Below, in pieces: positions 32,599-44,606 of a DNA stretch of 64,000 nucleotides; the first letter of the stretch is position 1, and each line of letters begins with the position of its first letter. Made by a program: the position numbers and the translations under genes. Source of the stretch: Nitrospirota bacterium (lineage in GTDB: Bacteria > Nitrospirota > UBA9217); contig CAVUCU010000005.1 in NCBI GenBank assembly GCA_963740085.1, forward strand, positions 32,001 to 96,000. Direction: 5' to 3'. Below the pieces are notes generated by a model that did no database searches, was not told where the DNA came from, and saw only the letters and a program-made list of their open reading frames with translations.

Positions 32599-35457
32599 TT
32601 ATCTGTCCAGCATTTCCCTCACCTTCTTCAGGAGCGCCTGTGGCGACATCGGTTTAATTATCATGGCCGAGCCTGTTTCGATCAAGTCCTTCTCTCGAAG
32701 CATATCCAGCGAATATCCGCTTACAAAGAGCACCGGGACCGCGGGCATCACCTTCCTGATCTCTTCATAAGCCTCTCTGCCGCTCTTCTTCGGCATCATA
32801 ATGTCGAATAGAAGCAGCTGAATTCTGTCCTTGTTTTCCATGAATTTCGTCACTGCCTCTGCTCCGTCATTCGCCTGAATAACGGTATAGCCCATTTGCT
32901 CAAGAACAACTACATTTAAATTCCGCATGTTCACATCATCCTCTGCCAAAAGGATTGTTCCCGTGCCGCCTTTTTGATATTCAACTTCCAGTGTCTTCCG
33001 CCTTTCCACTGCCGAGGCTTTGATCAGCGGGAGATAGATCCGGAAGGTCGTGCCTTTGCCCGGTTCACTGTATACGTTTATGAAACCCTCATTCTGTTTG
33101 AGAATGCCGTACACCATGGCCAACCCGAGCCCTGTTCCCTTGCCGACCTCCTTGGTCGTGAAAAAAGGCTCAAATATATTTTTCCTTGTTTCCTCGTTCA
33201 TCCCCACGCCAGTGTCGGTGGCAGAGATCATGGCATAGGTTCCCGGCTTCCCATACCCGTGGGCCGACACAAACCCGCTATCCATTTTCATAATCGATGT
33301 TTCGATCATGAATGAACCGCCATGCGGCATTGCATCCCGCGCATTCGTTGCAAGATTCATCATTACCTGCTCCAACTGGCCTGCGTCGGCCATGACGGTC
33401 AATTCACCCCCAGCAAGGGCCAAGCGGACCGCAACATCCTCACCGATAATCCGAATGAGAAATTTCTCTACTTTTTTGAGTATGCTATGCAGGTCAACAG
33501 GTTTACGGTCAATGATCTGCTTGCGGCTGAAGGTAAGAAGACTCTGGGTGAGTGAGGCAGCGCGGTCTGCTGACTCCAGCATGTGTTCTATATTCAGCCG
33601 TAAAGGATCGTCCTTCGGCATTTTCATGAGCGTAATGTGTCCGTAGCCGATGATGGCGGACAGGATATTATTGAAATCGTGGGCAATGCCTCCGGCAAGC
33701 GTACCAATGCTCTCCATCTTTTGAGCATGGCGAAGCTGGCTCTCCAAGGCTCTTTTTTCCGTTATGTCGTTGATGACCTCGATGACGGATTGTACTTCAC
33801 CGGATGGACTCTTCATCGCGTATGTCCTTACCTCCACCTGTCTCTGTTTGCCTTTATCATCCGTATGCGTGTGGACAGCAAGACCCGGCTCTCCTGTCTC
33901 GAATGTGCTTTTGCACGCGCAAACATGTCCGGGTTCATGGCATGGCTGTGTTGCATGATGCGATATCTCGTAACAATGTTTTCCAATAATATGCCCCAGC
34001 GATTCCCCTGCTTGCTCGCAGTACGCACGGTTGGCCGATAGTATGCGATAATCGCTATCAATCACCACAAATGCCTGATCAACGCTGGCAAGAATGTCCT
34101 CAATGAACTTTTCGGATTTTCGCAGCGTCTCTTCCGCCCGTTTGCGCTCGGTAATGTCACGGAAGATACCGACGAGGTACTGCTTTCCGCCCAACGTCAC
34201 CGAGGTGGCATTGATGTCCGCGTAAAAGACCGAGCCATCCTTTCTCAACATCGGGGCCTCAGATGCAAGCAAAATCTCGCCGCGCAGCTGTTTTTCAAAG
34301 AGCTCCCGGATGGCGGGCAGGTCCTCTTTCGGGTGAATATCATCAACACGCAGACCAACGATCTCATCGCGGGTATATCCAAGCATGATGCACATGGATT
34401 TATTTGCCTCAATATGCCTCTTGGTCTCCGCGTCGGCAATCATGATCCCGTCGATCGCATTTTCGAATATGGACCGGAACTTTTCCTCGCTTTCCCGCAG
34501 ACTCTCTTCACTTCGTTGACGTCCTTCGATGGAGCGGAGCAGTTCCCCGTTAATTCTGAGAATTGATTTATACCGCCAGAATGCCATGACGAAGAAGACG
34601 ATAATTAGGACAAGTCCGCTGACTGTAAGTATTCTATTGCGCGTCCAGTACGGTACCGGCACGCCGTACCATTTGCGATAAATCTGCTCATATTCGGCGC
34701 TTCCAGTAAAGCTATGCAGGGCATTGTTCAAGCGTCCAAGTAATTGCACGTTTCCCTTGCGTACCACCAAACATCTTTCCTGCTCCGCAAAGGGCTTTCC
34801 GATCTTCTTGATGCGGTCTTCCAGTCGGGCTTCCCGCACATTTTTTTGAATTTGGGTTTCCTCTCCGGCGAATATATCAATTTCCCCAGCGAGAAGGCTG
34901 AAAATTCCTTCCAGATAAGAACCATCAATAGAGAGATTCACGCCTGGCTTGTTTTTTAGTTGCTCGTAGGATAGACTGCCTTTGACAACGCCTACAGTGT
35001 GCCCTCGAGGTGCGGTATCGGGATTAATCTGGCTTTCAGAACGGACAAAATAGGAAAGGTAGGCTACATCTATCGGGGAACTGAATAGTAATATCTTTTC
35101 ACGTTCCGCGCTCTTGAGCAGAACGGTAATATCCGCCTCGCCGGTCTCTACCGAAGTTATCAACGCCGGCCAACCGGGTTCACAAATATATCTAAGCTCC
35201 AATCCCGCACGAGTGGCCACGCTATTGATAATATCCACCGCGAATCCGGAGGGCTTGTCGGTATTTTTGTCCCAAAAATTAACCGGCGAATAGGTACAAT
35301 GGATAACCACTGTCGCCTTTTCAGGCGCTATCTGCTTATTAGAAGATTCAGCCCATGATAAAGAGACGCAGGCTAAGACTATGGAAAAGATAATGATAAT
35401 AGGTACCAAAAACTTCCTAATTGGGCGCTTGGAATCAGGCAAGCTAACCTCCTTCAA
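32599..35457 (-). CDS. Hybrid histidine kinase: periplasmic solute-binding domain, 2 PAS, HisKA/HATPase, receiver
   Basis: GFAVDI periplasmic domain, DITERK, QKMESIGTLAGGIAHDFNN, FEPFFTTKEVGKGTGLGL, C-terminal receiver. Confidence 0.92.
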   Translation of the reverse strand: MKEVSLPDSKRPIRKFLVPIIIIFSIVLACVSLSWAESSNKQIAPEKATVVIHCTYSPVNFWDKNTDKPSGFAVDIINSVATRAGLELRYICEPGWPALITSVETGEADITVLLKSAEREKILLFSSPIDVAYLSYFVRSESQINPDTAPRGHTVGVVKGSLSYEQLKNKPGVNLSIDGSYLEGIFSLLAGEIDIFAGEETQIQKNVREARLEDRIKKIGKPFAEQERCLVVRKGNVQLLGRLNNALHSFTGSAEYEQIYRKWYGVPVPYWTRNRILTVSGLVLIIVFFVMAFWRYKSILRINGELLRSIEGRQRSEESLRESEEKFRSIFENAIDGIMIADAETKRHIEANKSMCIMLGYTRDEIVGLRVDDIHPKEDLPAIRELFEKQLRGEILLASEAPMLRKDGSVFYADINATSVTLGGKQYLVGIFRDITERKRAEETLRKSEKFIEDILASVDQAFVVIDSDYRILSANRAYCEQAGESLGHIIGKHCYEISHHATQPCHEPGHVCACKSTFETGEPGLAVHTHTDDKGKQRQVEVRTYAMKSPSGEVQSVIEVINDITEKRALESQLRHAQKMESIGTLAGGIAHDFNNILSAIIGYGHITLMKMPKDDPLRLNIEHMLESADRAASLTQSLLTFSRKQIIDRKPVDLHSILKKVEKFLIRIIGEDVAVRLALAGGELTVMADAGQLEQVMMNLATNARDAMPHGGSFMIETSIMKMDSGFVSAHGYGKPGTYAMISATDTGVGMNEETRKNIFEPFFTTKEVGKGTGLGLAMVYGILKQNEGFINVYSEPGKGTTFRIYLPLIKASAVERRKTLEVEYQKGGTGTILLAEDDVNMRNLNVVVLEQMGYTVIQANDGAEAVTKFMENKDRIQLLLFDIMMPKKSGREAYEEIRKVMPAVPVLFVSGYSLDMLREKDLIETGSAMIIKPMSPQALLKKVREMLDR

Positions 35458-35830
35458 AACAAGAGCGTTGTTTGCTCTTGGAAATGACTATTTTATACTT
35501 TGTAAGTTGTGGGACAACGACCCCATTGACACATGACGTTATGTTAAGGAGAAGCAGGAACATTAAGGGTTAGACGGAACATTTCAATCTCCCTCACGGA
35601 GTGATTATAACATAATGGCGCAACGTGCAATGCTTATTCGAGTTGGATCGTAGTCGGATGATAAAGAGATTCAGACATGGGTTCAATAATACCCGAACAT
35701 TACATCCGGACATCTGGTAGATTCGGCGTTTTAGAAGCATCCTCTATAGGGTATTGTACTGGTATTCCAGCAAATACGGAATGTAACTTGATATGTTTCA
35801 ACAAAATGCAACTACAACGAGTACAGTCAA

Positions 35831-37027
35831 CTATGTGCAGCTCACCGATGATGCCAGATATCTCTGTTTGTGTGACAACATGGCAAAAAGCATTCGAGTA
35901 AGTTTATGCATTGTTGCCATGACTGCTTTCTTATAAGGCAATCCAGCTTGTTTCTTTTTCTGGTAATACGCTCGGAATTTATCGTTATTGAGGATCACAT
36001 TTACCGTCATGAGCCAAAGAACACGTCGAAGGTGCCTATTTCCTCTCTTTGAGATTCTGCTCTTTCCCTCGTACTTGCCGGATTGATACACTGTTGGATC
36101 AATCCCTGCGTAGGCAATCAAATGTTTGTGCGTCTCGTAGCTCTCGATTCGTCCTAGCTCAGCCAAAAAAGTGGTACCGGTTCCGTTACCGATGCCTACC
36201 ACGGATGTTACAATCTCCAGGTCTTCGACCATCAGAGAGTTGCAGTAGTCCGTGAGCATGACCGTCAACTCATCTCGACGATCCTCCAGATGGATTAGTG
36301 TCGAGATTTTCCCCCGGAGGATAGTCTCTTTGGCTGGACTGACCGTCCCAACCGAGTTCTTGGCCAGTTTGATGATATCCTCCGCCGTAAAGGTTGATAT
36401 TCTGCTCCCTGAACCTCGTGGCTCCATAGCTTTAGCTATTGCCCGGGGTTTGGCAAGCACAATCAAACGAGCCGAGGGAAACTTCTTCAGAAATTCAAGC
36501 ATGATGCCCGAATAGACGCCGCAGAGCCGCTCAAGCTCAGGAAAGGTCGTCTGCAAGACCCGCTTGATCTCGGTCTTGGTCGCGGAAATCAAATGGCTCA
36601 GCGACTCTCTCTCCCGGGCGAGATCTCGCATATCCTGCATATCCTGGCTGACGGACATCTGAGAAATCTTATCCGTGTGAGCCAGCAGGAACTGGGCGAT
36701 CGTCAGTGCGTCTTTCTTATCGGTCTTGGTCTTCCGGAGCGTAAGTTTGGCAAAGTTCGAAATCAACAGCGGGTTAATGACTACGGCTCGGATGCCCTGA
36801 GACGTGAGATAAGAGAATAGATTGATGTGATAGCAGCCCGTGGACTCCATGCCGACGATGACCGTAGAAACATATGGTTGCTGTGCCATTATCATCTTCA
36901 GCAACTTCGAGAACCCATCACTGTCCATGGTACAATCTTGGGCGAAACAGCGTGTCCCTTTGCCGTCAAGGCCAGCGGCAGAAAAGGACTCTTTGGAAAC
37001 ATCGACGCCAACGGTCAAACTTTCCAT
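35831..37027 (-). CDS. IS110 family recombinase/transposase (DEDD RuvC + Tnp domain)
   Basis: VGVDVSK, GMESTG.YH, KTKTDKKDA, AYAGIDP...QSG, ISKRGNRHLR; RBS ggagg before MESLTV. Confidence 0.95.
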   Translation of the reverse strand: MESLTVGVDVSKESFSAAGLDGKGTRCFAQDCTMDSDGFSKLLKMIMAQQPYVSTVIVGMESTGCYHINLFSYLTSQGIRAVVINPLLISNFAKLTLRKTKTDKKDALTIAQFLLAHTDKISQMSVSQDMQDMRDLARERESLSHLISATKTEIKRVLQTTFPELERLCGVYSGIMLEFLKKFPSARLIVLAKPRAIAKAMEPRGSGSRISTFTAEDIIKLAKNSVGTVSPAKETILRGKISTLIHLEDRRDELTVMLTDYCNSLMVEDLEIVTSVVGIGNGTGTTFLAELGRIESYETHKHLIAYAGIDPTVYQSGKYEGKSRISKRGNRHLRRVLWLMTVNVILNNDKFRAYYQKKKQAGLPYKKAVMATMHKLTRMLFAMLSHKQRYLASSVSCT

Positions 37028-37044
37028 TGATCCCTCCTCCATGC

Positions 37045-37201
37045 AAGATTTAGACAGGCAGGAAACGCCTCCCGACCAATCCTCCATCGTTACCAGGGCT
37101 CTTTGGCCCAATCAACCTATCATGGCTATGGGAGGCAGGGAACAAACTGTACTGAGGGTTCAAGGACCCAGGAAGTAAACTAAGTTCTCCTGCCCTTCTA
37201 T
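37045..37201 (-). ncRNA. IS110 bridge RNA with target-binding and donor-binding loops
   Basis: Closing GGGCAGGA/UCCUGCCU. Arm 1: GAAC/GUUC, internal loop, GGGU/ACCC hairpin. Arm 2: GCCUCCC/GGGAGGC, internal loop, GGGC/GCCC hairpin. Loop sequences match the flanks and ends. Confidence 0.82.
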
Positions 37202-37232
37202 GACATCTATATAGCACAACTAATCGTAGGAG

Positions 37233-37667
37233 GAAGTACTTCTTGCCGTTCGAATATAGCATAGAATGAATATTTCAAGAAGCAATTTACGATTCTAAGA
37301 GCAGCGTATCGATTGGGCTGAGCATAGTGAGCCAACATCTTCTTCAAATTGCGGAAAGCAGCCTCCAACCTCCCGGCTCTCACCGCGTACCTGAATGAAC
37401 TCGTAATAACGACGGCGGCTCGCACTCGATGACCATCGCGCGCCCGGTGCCGGGATGACGAAAGCTCAGAATTGCGGCATGAAGATGGTAGCCCGGGTCG
37501 CCGGGCAAGGCATGTGTATCCGGCAGGGGCAAACCGCCTGCGCCGTACAGAGGATCGCCAACCAGAGGGTGTCCCGAGGATGCCAGGTGAATGCGGATCT
37601 GGTGTGGACGGCCTGTCTCAATTCGGACATCACAGAGGAAGGAATCTTCGCGGCGTTCGATGACGGT
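37233..37667. repeat. 435-bp direct-repeat copy of 44165-44606, containing the 3' end of the RluA-type gene
   Basis: Identical except 2 substitutions and one 7-nt duplication (cagcctc). Confidence 0.9.
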
Positions 37668-37695
37668 ATGGGGTCAGACTTAAAGATTGAGTTAC

Positions 37696-38366
37696 TTATT
37701 CCTTCTTTAAAGCTGCGGCCACAACTTCTATTTCTTTCCAAACATCCTTGCTACTCCGGAGATACACAGTCACAGCCGCGGGGTCTTTCCGCAAATACGC
37801 CGCGATCTCTCGCCCTGTATAACCATATTCCTTCGCTAGAATACTGAAGAGTGGTCGAGCAGTCAAGATATTTGTGGTTCTCTCCATGATCGCAGATCCT
37901 CAAGCGAAACGGCGCACTGCCGAGCAATCTCTCCTGCTAGCCGGGGCAAGACGTCTTCCTGCTTGATTGTTGCTCCGTCGTTCATGAACATCGAGTACTG
38001 TTTTCGTGCTCTGCCTTTGTTCTCGGAAAACATTCTGAGAACAAGGTCGGTGTCAAGCAATTCTGACAGCTCCGTTTTTGTGCCCACGGTCTTGTACCTT
38101 CGGTTATAGTACATGGTATACCTCTGGTTAACGCCCTGAAGGATTTTGGAGAGCGGAATGGCCCTGGTTTCAATCAGAAGGTGCACATGGTTGGACATGA
38201 GTATGTATGCATAGAGATGAAAATGATAGCGTTGTTTGTAGCCGATAAGTATTTCAAGAAATTTACGATAATCGAGGGGATCTTTAAATATCTTCTGCTT
38301 CTGGTTTCCTCTGGTGATTACATGATAAAAGGCGCCTTCGTATTCAATTCGGGGTTTTCTAGCCAT
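37696..38366 (-). pseudogene. REP-associated-type tyrosine transposase with DnaA_C-like HTH tail; internally deleted and frameshifted
   Basis: MARKPR...YHVITRGN and MSNHVHLL HUH motif present. The catalytic YIxxNP segment is absent. HTH tail YTGREIAAYLRKDPAAV lies in a second frame. Confidence 0.8.
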
Positions 38367-38400: not shown

Positions 38401-38486
38401 TAACTCAATCTTTAAGTCTGACCCCGTACGCCTCCGAGGGGCCAGCCACGTTCCAATGATTCGGCAGCGCAAACTTATTTTAATCT

Positions 38487-41465: not shown

Positions 41466-43920
41466 CGAAGCGGGCGAGGCGACGCCGCGCGCGCAGCGTG
41501 TGCGACGGGACTGTCGTCTCGCGTGTCCCGTATGGGGCGCCATCTCCGTGTCCGCTCGCGTGGCCGGTCCTCACGCGACGCCCCGGGCGTTCGGTGCGGC
41601 CGCGCCGCTGGGCTCGCGCAGGTGACGATCGCCCGCCCGGTGAGCGCCCGCTGCGATGGCAGAGCGGTCCCCGCTGAGCCGCCGACGCCGGCGGGGTGAC
41701 CCGACCCGCGTGCCGCTCCCGGGCGACTGCCGTCCGAGCTGATTGGGCCGAGACCCGCAGGCGACGACGCCGCTAGACCTTATTCCGCGGCGAGCGGGCG
41801 ACTGTGCGCCCCCCACGCGCCAGCCGCCCCGCCACACCCGCTGGAGACGTTGCGTGACGGCCGCCCACATACCGACCGCCGCGGCCCGCAGGCGGGACGG
41901 TGCGGTGGCGCCGGAGCGGGCCCGGCCGGGCGCGGACGGGCGTGCCGGCCGGGCCCGGACACACCGGAGCGATGAAGAGCAGAGCCGCCGCTTAGTAGCC
42001 GGATATCCGTTGCCATGTTCCGCGCGCGCGGCCCTCCGAGGCGATCCCCGCGCGACGGCGAGCGGCGGCCGGCGCTTGTTGGTCTGAACGGTTCGCGCCC
42101 GCAGAGTGTGCAAGGGGTCCTGCGATGTGCATCCCCCCGATGCCCGGGATGTGCCCCGGCCGGTGCGTTCTACCGATAGAAGCCCTGGCGCGGCCCCGAA
42201 ACAATAGTTCTACCTTAGCCGACACGTGCCAGCCACGTAGGAGCCGACGATAGGCGGCGGCCCAAATAGCAGACACCGGGGAGACGAGGTTCGAATAGCC
42301 GGCATGGAGGGAGAGGGCGGCGGTCCCGGGGCGCCGGGCCGCCGAAGAAAGCGTGGCGCTGAGACGCGGGTGGCATAGGAGACCCCCGGCCCCGGCGCGG
42401 GCCCAGAGCAGACGCAGACCCGCCCGGCCCGTCACACCCGCCGGCCCCCCAGGAGCGGCCGGGGCCCCGGCCGACCCGCCGCCCCGCGCCCCCGGCCGCG
42501 GCGATACCGGGCAGCGCCCGCCGGCCGAGCGGCCTGCCCGGGGAGAACACCGGCGGCCGGCCGCGAGCCGGCAGCGGGCCCGCACCGGCGACCAGGCGGC
42601 CCGGCGGCGGGGCGGCCGAGCGGGACGAGCGCGAGAAGCCGGCCGCGGGCGACGGGGGCGCGGGGCCGGCGACCCGGGCCGAAGACCCCCGGCCCGACGC
42701 GGCCCCCGCGGCCGACGCCGGCCCCGGAGCCCGCCGACGCGGTAGAGAGCCGGTGCCGCCCGGCGGAGAGCCCGCGCCCCCCCCGCCGCGCCGCCGGCGG
42801 CAGGGCAGCGCGCAGAGACGCGCGCCCGGAATAGCGGCGGGCCGGCCCGCCAGAGACCGACCGCCGGCCGCCGGCCCCGGAAGAGCGGCCGCGGCTGACG
42901 TGCCGATGTGGCCGACGCGCCCGGCGAGAGCGCCACCCCCGGGCCGGCGCCGCCGCCGCCCGCGATATACGGTGGCGCGATGCCCGACCGATTGACGGAC
43001 GGGCGGTTGGCCCCCACGGACCCGACGGCGCCGACGATGTCGGCCGAGGAGGCGCGGGCCGAGATGAACCGCCGCCGCCGCACCCTGCCGCCCCCGCGCT
43101 CCGCCGGTCAGTGATACCGAGGCGGTGACCCGCCGGCCGCCCTGGCGAGGCGCCGCGGTCTGACCCGCGCTGCTCCTCAATAGGTGGCGCCTCCGACCTG
43201 GCCGCGGCTCTTCGATCCCCCAGCGGCCGATGGGGAGCTAAACTGCCGGATCCGCGCTGAGCACCGATGGCGCGGGAAGTCAGTACCTGCGCCGGTGCTG
43301 AGGGCGGGCAAAGAGATGCCACGGCCGGTAGCGAGGGTCCCTGAGCCGCCACCCTGGCCGGCCTGGCCGCCACCGATATAATCGATCGGGATGAACCGCC
43401 GCCCCAGGTGGGACCGTCGAACGGATGCCGAGTGGATCGTGACGAGTGCCGATGGTGAGCCGGGAAGTGAGGGGCCAGGGCGCAGGTGAGCCGATATCCC
43501 CGTCGCCAAGAAGATGGCGGGACTCGCCGAAGGCCAGCCCGATAATGGTGCACCGGCCCGAGGGAGATGTACGTCCCGTGAGGCGGATGCCGAGCCCTCT
43601 CCCGAACGCCCACGGCAGACGAGCCGATATCGGGAATGGACGCGGCGCGCTCCCGCCGGGACGGTCAGTGCAAGCACGGAACCCCCCCCCGGGCAGCCGT
43701 GGCAGATAGTGCCTGTTCTCTGTGCCAAGTGCGCGCAGTCGGCCGGGCCAGGGAGTGGGACCACACGGTCACTGCGCCGGTAGCGCGGCTGGATATCTCT
43801 GACCCTGCGATGGGCCATGGCCGAGACTGCAGCCCGCCATACCCTTGGGATGACGCCGAAAGCCTTGTCCGATGATCCAGACCTCCGGCGGCAGGTCGTG
43901 ACTCTTACAGATCCCAGTCG
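41466..43920. other. GC-extreme uninterpretable tract, probably low-quality read sequence
   Basis: Abrupt composition shift; only Arg/Gly/Ala/Pro junk ORFs; bounded by a broken gene and a homopolymer. Confidence 0.7.
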
Positions 43921-44164
<244 letters not shown>

Positions 44165-44606
44165 GAAGTACTTCTTGCCGTTCGAATATAGCATAAAATG
44201 AATATTTCAAGAAGCAATTTACGATTCTAAGAGCAGCGTATCGATTGGGCTGAGCATAGTGAGCCAACATCTTCTTCAAATTGCGGAAAGCAGCCTCCAG
44301 CCTCCAACCTCCCGGCTCTCACCGCGTACCTGGATGAACTCGTAATAACGACGGCGGCTCGCACTCGATGACCATCGCGCGCCCGGTGCCGGGATGACGA
44401 AAGCTCAGAATTGCGGCATGAAGATGGTAGCCCGGGTCGCCGGGCAAGGCATGTGTATCCGGCAGGGGCAAACCGCCTGCGCCGTACAGAGGATCGCCAA
44501 CCAGAGGGTGTCCCGAGGATGCCAGGTGAATGCGGATCTGGTGTGGACGGCCTGTCTCAATTCGGACATCACAGAGGAAGGAATCTTCGCGGCGTTCGAT
44601 GACGGT
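44165..44606. repeat. Second copy of the direct repeat
   Basis: Matches 37233-37667. Confidence 0.9.

Follow-up and report, generated by a model that had tools for sequence, protein, structure and literature searches.

Can the guide RNA of a mobile element be decoded directly against the site at which the element lies? This question is raised by an element of the IS110 group of insertion sequences (IS) on the minus strand of a 64,000-nucleotide (nt) stretch of contig CAVUCU010000005.1 from a Nitrospirota bacterium (assembly GCA_963740085.1), here called the window. An earlier reading of the window, made from the letters alone (the sequence-only reading), had proposed a bridge recombinase and an upstream RNA whose two loops match the insertion site and the joined ends of the element. 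Our follow-up leads us to hold, at a probability of roughly 93%, that this is an intact, recently mobile IS110-group IS, encoding a DEDD/Ser recombinase and, in its left end, a bridge RNA with two modules that decode the target and the element's own ends. Positions below are those of the window, and sequences are read on the minus strand; the coordinates of the features are collected in Table 1.

The protein encoded by the element is, as judged by its sequence, an IS110-family DEDD/Ser recombinase. It matches the N-terminal RuvC-like domain DEDD_Tnp_IS110 (PF01548; E = 2.6e-37, residues 6–163), whose profile is covered from end to end, and the C-terminal Tnp domain Transposase_20 (PF02371; E = 9.5e-25, residues 271–356). 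Comparison with PDB chains by phmmer returned as relatives of solved structure only the transposases of ISCro4 (1.3e-16) and IS621 (7.6e-14). The DEDD motif and the catalytic Ser-Gly of IS621 are given as D11, E60, D102, D105 and S241-G242 (PMC11208158); D9, E61, D103, D106 and S316-G317 of the window protein align with these residues (residue numbers in the PDB chains are shifted by 2) and are thus candidates for the catalytic residues. A longer, 426-residue open reading frame (ORF) that starts from TTG at 37111 was rejected as the gene, as relatives align on the ATG at 37027, which is preceded by a GGAGG box, and the upstream portion is conserved RNA.

The element measures 1,404 bp without its cores (35827–37230) and 1,406 bp with one CT core. 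At the left junction, AAGTACTTC (37241–37233) is followed by CT (37232–37231) and CCTACG, the whole string occupying 37241–37225. At the right junction, the TAG stop codon (35833–35831) is followed by TTGA (35830–35827), CT (35826–35825) and GTACTCG, so that the string ATAGTTGA-CT-GTACTCG spans 35834–35818 and the right end comprises only the 4 nt past the stop codon. The flanking repeat is the dinucleotide CT, not a longer target duplication. The ends ATAGTTGA and CCTACG are no inverted repeats, and the subterminal inverted repeat around the donor, ATA-GTTGA-CT-CC-TAC, amounts at best to a 2-bp TA/TA match (IS110-group expectation, 2–3 bp).

Four lines of evidence confirm these boundaries and the CT core. 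The genome to which the window belongs (G000; 7 contigs, 3.46 Mb) carries a 100%-identical copy on contig C7 in unrelated surrounding DNA, where the element stands between AAAAAGTACTTC-CT and CT-GTAGTC; the flanks of the C7 and window copies agree only in a left AAGTACTTC-CT and a right CT-GTA.TC. The orthologous site is unoccupied at locus L112 of a genome of the same genus (G005), where it reads AAGAAGTACTTC-CT-GAACTCGTTG with a single CT, or, more widely, ...GGCAAGAAGTACTTC-CT-GAACTCGTTGAAG... A contig from a public run (X1) joins 35825 to 37233 with one letter between them, precisely the element plus one core (35826–37232) being skipped. This contig carries 8 further differences from the window and TT, on the element strand, at the expected CT; it is therefore an empty allele from another strain and not proof of excision. 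Finally, the ends are nearly invariant among relatives: almost all start with CT-CCTAC and finish with ATAGTTGA-CT, in which the TAG is often the stop codon. These results bear out what the sequence-only reading had claimed for the element as such: an IS110 recombinase (both Pfam domains and the aligned catalytic residues), an apparently intact element on the minus strand, a right end of 4 nt beyond the stop codon, and a target that is restored with one CT when the element is removed. The further copy and the empty sites found here agree with the boundaries it had proposed.

The target guides were identified in loop 1 of the left-end RNA. According to the rule described for IS621, each loop binds the bottom strand through its 5' side and the top strand through its 3' side, and these pairings include the core (PMC11208160). 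Under this rule, the word TACTTCCT is identical to the left flank plus core over 8 nt, and AGTACAG is the reverse complement of the core plus 5 nt of the right target, a match of 7 nt. When the 203-nt left end was shuffled 200,000 times by mononucleotide, 511 shuffles contained the 8-mer, 2,185 the 7-mer and only 5 both; the target-loop match is therefore far above chance.

A scan of one genome per species gave 277 related loci, of which 80 were kept (47–83% amino-acid identity), mostly from Nitrospirota, Thermodesulfovibrionales and 'delta proteobacterium' metagenome-assembled genomes. Six of the 80 had less than 263 nt upstream and were excluded, leaving 74 aligned relatives, whose guide columns were compared with the flanks of each locus and with shuffled pairings of the two. 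For the left target (positions −7 to −1; 70 of the 74 loci usable), 345 matches were counted compared with 232 ± 10 in shuffles; for the right target (+1 to +5; 62 loci usable), there were 240 compared with 139 ± 8. None of 10,000 shuffles gave as many matches in either case. The left signal is located at −1 to −5, and the usable relatives gave no right signal at +6 and +7. Misaligned rows, such as L021, L031 and L053, were retained in the counts, which lowers the score, and the covariation persists with a single locus per distinct guide (43 left, 32 right). The loop assignments thus follow the published rule and are supported by the covariation of guides and flanks among relatives.

The guides lie in a conserved structure. 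We aligned the RNAs of 60 relatives and the window (61 distinct sequences), leaving out exact duplicates and L014, L021, L031, L034 and L037, which are truncated, misaligned or N-masked. RNAalifold predicted two modules, in each of which an internal loop separates an outer stem from an inner hairpin, and all four guide words fall inside the internal loops of this consensus. Its 23 pairs show standard pairing in 98.0% of cells, compared with 93.3% in shuffles and 25–70% in slid controls, and 11 of the 23 have changed on both sides; none of 500 shuffles reached the observed structure values. Compensatory pairs include columns 59/108 (GC 31, AU 25) and 79/88 (UA 45, CG 12) in the target module, and columns 151/168 (GC 43, AU 15) and 152/167 (UA 39, CG 21) in the donor module.

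In loop 2, the left donor word GUUGAUU matches the right end GTTGA-CT over 7 nt with one U·G wobble at the core C, and the right donor word GGAG, of 4 nt, is the reverse complement of CT-CC. Such short words are weak evidence alone, and their support comes from variants among the relatives. The donor is nearly invariant in the family; at 6 of the 7 loci where it or the core varies, loop 2 carries a compensating change. The left donor guides match at L061 (GTTAA-CT) and L039 (GATGA-CT), GAAG replaces GGAG at L041 (CT-TC), and GGTG replaces it at the three loci with a CA core (L007, L018 and L008; CA-CC). In these CA-core relatives, the right target guide (complement CAG..) likewise follows the core, and the 5' guides stay ..CU and ..UU. 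The words that had been read in both loops were all found at their positions, including the 7-nt right-target match and the single wobble in loop 2. Together with the two-module structure and the covariation, they uphold the proposed target-loop/donor-loop logic of the IS621 type with a CT core.

The first base after GGAG complements the −1 base of the left target in 61 of 69 loci, compared with 47.8 in shuffles (0 of 5,000 shuffles reached this value), and so fits the published 'handshake' guide. Directly after the right target guide, UU is a candidate handshake for the donor end ..GA. The handshake rule does not suit a subgroup of six loci (L060, L063, L067, L069, L074 and L078). In these six, the last two bases of the left target guide before the inner stem are CA, and the AU after GGAG is unable to pair with the last left-target base (A).

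Has the element moved recently? Three 100%-identical copies are present in G000, in the window and on contigs C7 and C6. We do not count the C6 copy as a third independent site, since its left flank equals that of the window over at least 1,530 nt, or over ~5.7 kb at 99.4%, and contig C6 ends with it; it is probably the window locus assembled twice. Public contigs revealed two further sites. In an X1 contig, the left end of the element is joined to 24 nt equal to G000 C5:~197360, which is empty in G000 and reads GATTCCTTC-CT-GTACTTA. In an X4 contig, the right end is joined to a repeat copy at C5:~387998; the G000 allele there is empty and reads TTCTTC-CT-CTACTC. This C5 site departs from the window flank at 13 positions, and at 12 of them the occupied X4 allele departs as well; the exception is right-target +1, where the occupied allele therefore has G, as the guide requires. 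Both of these further sites agree with the guide, and all four natural insertion sites fit xxCTTC-CT-GTAxT, with mismatches at left-target −5 and right-target +4. The identical copies at two loci, the intact gene and the polymorphic sites collectively argue for an intact element that has moved recently.

The right flank of the element belongs to a dispersed intergenic repeat, with the target at its 5' edge. Counted from the core, the first 80 nt on this side recur at more than 15 places in seven related genomes (BLAST). We fetched 16 right-flank matches; in 12 of them the alignment starts at the core, and 11 of these 12 read ..CTTC-CT-G(T/A)A.. at the same position. The repeat is ~100 nt long, and an nhmmer profile made from the relatives' copies gave 11 matches in G000, among them C1:954344, C1:845531, C1:1182325 and C5:387987. 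The only perfect free 13-mer target in G000 (C1:954358; ~0.1 expected by our estimate) lies within a repeat copy, and several of the seven sites with one mismatch also fall within profile matches. The repeat is AT-rich and ends, in relatives, in TTGACA-17-TATAxT, which resembles a sigma-70 promoter; the target itself is nearly palindromic (AGTAC..GTACT). The aligned copies yielded no consensus secondary structure, and Rfam gave no family above threshold in eight repeat copies from relatives or ten sites of the genome itself. A c-di-GMP-I-GGC match in L099 was dismissed as noise (24.5 bits against a gathering score of 59), and the idea that the repeat is the leader of one paralogous gene family was dropped because the ORFs downstream of nine own-genome copies are heterogeneous.

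Based on these findings and on what is described for the family, we propose a plausible cycle for the element. Excision as a circle would join ATAGTTGA-CT-CCTAC. The hexamer TTGACT forms only where the TTGA of the right end meets the core on the circle, 17 nt from the TATATA box; the integrated copy reads CTTCCT at the −35 position. The circle junction would thereby create a TTGACT-17-TATATA promoter that drives both the RNA and the gene, similar to the circle-junction promoter described for IS621 (PMC11208160, PMC11208158); relatives share this arrangement. The nine bases TAGTTGACT would do triple duty, supplying the stop codon, the left donor word and the −35 box. Loop 1 of the bridge RNA would then read the target, while loop 2 would read the joined element ends, pairing GUUGA-UU with GTTGA-CT and GGAG with CT-CC. 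The recombinase–RNA complex would recombine the circle with a chromosomal TACTTC-CT-GTACT site by strand exchange at the CT core, which would leave a CT on either side of the inserted element. The chemistry, like the circle, the junction promoter and expression of the RNA, is taken here from the family.

Several results weigh against the reading of an intact, mobile and RNA-guided element. The relatives are kin, so that the shuffle tests overstate independence and the compensated rare donor variants are a stronger argument than the shuffle figures; among those variants, L054 has no matching left donor guide. The second handshake base agrees less well than the first (40 of 69 loci compared with 33.5 in shuffles, a value reached by 182 of 5,000). 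The minimum-free-energy fold of the window left end as a single sequence is not stabler than shuffles (z = −0.35), and the structural evidence therefore comes from the alignment and not from one sequence. Rfam 15 returned 0 matches at E ≤ 1 in 35500–37600, which carries little weight, as Rfam may hold no bridge RNA model. Expression of the RNA and both of its ends are predicted. A scan of the integrated copy for promoters and terminators found neither in the left end, and the −10 box matches the consensus at 4 of 6 positions, with A instead of T at the last. No joint of right end to left end was present among the public contigs of X1–X4; as contigs and not reads, these are uninformative either way. 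Moreover, since C6 is probably the window locus, G000 shows two independent sites and not three.

Some of these points could be accommodated by a fossil copy, in which the match between guides and flanks records a past insertion and the element is immobile now. The imperfect −10 box would fit such a history, and it is also true that we infer the RNA, the circle and the activity. We nevertheless regard it as improbable: copies at two independent sites are 100% identical over ~1.4 kb, the reading frame and catalytic residues are intact, and public contigs place the element at two more sites, both unoccupied in G000, and also include an empty allele of the window site. It is harder still, and to us scarcely credible, to take the guide-like words for chance matches in a structured 5' leader that regulates only translation of the transposase. 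The shortness of the donor words would suit this explanation, as would a conserved UCCUGCC after the second module, which is a candidate for pairing with the first stem. Against it stand the 5 shuffles in 200,000 that held both target words, the strong family-wide covariation with the flanks, and the compensation of donor and core changes by loop 2.

A true IS110 element might also choose its sites mainly through the recombinase, by recognition of the sequence or shape of the repeat, the RNA match being secondary or historical. At least two insertion sites, those of the window and of the C5:~387998 copy occupied in X4, lie in one conserved intergenic repeat, and so does the single free site that matches the target perfectly. 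The target is close to a palindrome, and for ISPpu10 a preprint describes a stem-loop at the target as a further determinant (10.64898/2026.03.19.712850). However, the guide columns change with the flanks across relatives at −1 to −5 and +1 to +5, which recognition by protein alone does not predict. In addition, the flanks of C7 and C5:~197360 are unlike the repeat beyond ~13 nt, and the repeat is without a consensus fold. We therefore give this explanation the same small chance as the fossil copy, although a DNA-shape layer may be added to RNA guidance. With RNA guidance as the preferred reading, the recurrence of the target in the repeat suggests a further idea, which we put forward tentatively and would sooner bet against: that this IS lineage is a specialised parasite of one ~100-nt dispersed intergenic repeat across a Nitrospirota genus or family, every member inserting at the same edge, ..CTTC-CT-G(T/A)A(C/G)T.., with guide variants (CTGTAC, CTGAAG, CTGAAA and CTGTAG) that track variants of the repeat. 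If so, element and landing pad would co-diversify, and insertion would separate the promoter module of the repeat from whatever lies upstream.

IS621 of Escherichia coli targets REP (repetitive extragenic palindromic) elements, and the natural target found here likewise lies in a repeated intergenic sequence. The two IS110-group elements share an RuvC-like DEDD domain plus a Tnp domain with a catalytic Ser-Gly, a long left end encoding an RNA with target and donor loops, a CT core that is part of all four pairings, a 4-nt right donor guide, and a −35 box formed at the junction of right and left ends, the last being a prediction here (PMC11208160, PMC11208158). The proteins have low similarity (phmmer, 7.6e-14), found mainly in the Tnp domain, and differ in length (398 amino acids here, 326 in IS621). 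Unlike in IS621, the right end is only 4 nt long, so that stop codon, left donor word and −35 half overlap, and the left donor guide pairs with the core C by a U·G wobble; the natural right target guide is 7 nt here and 4 nt in wild-type IS621 (PMC11208160, PMC11208158). The ISCro4 transposase (PDB 9t56), compared by protein alone, is the best match of solved structure (1.3e-16); both domains align, and it is still distant. ISPpu9 and ISPpu10 of Pseudomonas putida, also IS110, are described as inserting at a fixed position in a multi-copy conserved intergenic sequence (PMC12288879; 10.64898/2026.03.19.712850). Unlike for these, no GC-rich stem-loop was found beside the target here, where the repeat is AT-rich and has, in relatives, the sigma-70-like end. 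The IS1111 group of the IS110 family shares the recombinase family and the RNA-guided logic (PMC11208160), but its elements have long RNA-bearing right ends and longer subterminal inverted repeats; the 203-nt left end and 4-nt right end therefore place the window element in the IS110 group.

Right target guides of 4–7 nt and short right ends are described for the IS110 group. The 7-nt guide and 4-nt right end fall within that range and deserve less weight than the sequence-only reading had given them. Our understanding of the system is unchanged, since its mechanism, loop logic, CT core, short right end and repeated intergenic targets have already been described for IS110 elements. What the locus offers is a natural bridge RNA that can be decoded from sequence alone, with the insertion site, the ends of the element, an unoccupied allele and several polymorphic insertions to read it against. 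It also offers 61 distinct RNAs aligned across the family, in which target, donor and core have been reprogrammed naturally, and collections used in bridge-recombinase engineering gain a credible candidate orthologue that comes from an uncultured lineage of Nitrospirota. In the literature on Nitrospirota, Thermodesulfovibrionales and Thermodesulfovibrio, neither IS110 nor 'bridge RNA' appeared among the matches listed, which is no proof that the element is unpublished; the supplementary tables of PMC11208160 cover thousands of orthologues.

Table 1 Features of the IS110-group element and its right flank, in window coordinates.
Feature	Position	Strand	Basis
Whole IS110-group element, including a CT core copy at each end	35825..37232	minus	Identical copies C7 and C6, X1 contig, empty L112 site
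Left CT core copy	37231..37232	minus	Sequence reading, C7 copy; one CT at empty L112
Right CT core copy	35825..35826	minus	Sequence reading, C7 copy; ATAGTTGA-CT conserved in relatives
Recombinase gene, 398 amino acids, ATG behind GGAGGAGGG	35831..37027	minus	Pfam, alignment to IS621 and ISCro4 chains, start of relatives
Left end, 203 nt, non-coding, encodes predicted bridge RNA	37028..37230	minus	Sequence, alignment of relatives
Predicted bridge RNA body with both guide modules	37060..37205	minus	Block conserved in 61 distinct sequences; consensus of 23 pairs; ends predicted
Target-binding module	37134..37194	minus	Outer stem 37194-37184/37143-37134; inner hairpin 37169-37166/37159-37156; helices 1-2
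Left target guide UACUUC plus core-binding CU (TACTTCCT)	37170..37177	minus	Identical to flank 37238-37231; covaries in 70 relatives
Right target guide AGUAC plus AG (AGTACAG)	37147..37153	minus	Reverse complement of 35826-35820; covaries in 62 relatives
Candidate handshake UU for donor ..GA	37146-37145	minus	Directly after right target guide; U after CAG nearly invariant in relatives
Donor-binding module	37070..37133	minus	Outer stem 37133-37124/37077-37070; inner hairpin 37109-37106/37099-37096; helices 3-6
Left donor guide GUUGA plus UU (GTTGATT)	37110..37116	minus	Matches right end GTTGA-CT, U·G wobble at core C
Right donor guide GGAG, then GA (candidate handshake for target ..TC)	37080..37085	minus	GGAG at 37085-37082 is reverse complement of CT-CC
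TG-n-TATATA, extended −10-like box, putative function	37208..37216	minus	Sequence reading; T(G/A)TGnTATA conserved in relatives
Right flank, dispersed intergenic repeat copy, target at 5' edge	35700..35824	minus	BLAST, alignment, nhmmer

Contig C6 (15,695 bp) carries the left flank of the window and the IS at 99.4–99.9% identity and terminates at the right end of the IS. It also carries a paralogue of the site that has diverged and is unoccupied, AAGTGCTTTCC-GTACTCC; the contig represents either a segmental duplication or strain variants assembled redundantly. Within the window, a second copy of the left flank at 44165 was discarded as a candidate empty site because it runs into homopolymer junk. 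This copy (435 nt, 98% identical) stops exactly at ...AAGTACTTC and is directly followed by a run of 168 G, a run of 56 A and a T run (43920–44164 and 44165–44606). The stretch looks like an assembly artefact at a repeat boundary, and the contig may be mis-joined there.

At locus L113 (G018:C14:~318030), TACTTC-CT-CCTACGTTTAATTGTGCTATATAG is followed by unrelated sequence; it has the appearance of a solo left end, 30 nt in length, from a related element, and the site is target-like. Beside the IS110 element in the window, an ORF for an IS200-like Y1 transposase (37863–38366, minus strand; PF01797, 6.8e-13) is flanked by inverted repeats of 28–29 nt (37666–37694 and 38401–38429), of which the 28-mer recurs with 100% identity at many places in related genomes. 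Together they look like a module of the REP/RAYT (REP-associated tyrosine transposase) kind or of the IS200 type. Downstream, at 32599–35457 on the minus strand, lies a gene for a 952-residue hybrid sensor kinase (domains SBP_bac_3, PAS, HisKA, HATPase and receiver). Its start is ~370 bp away from the element, which lies upstream and may influence how the gene is expressed.

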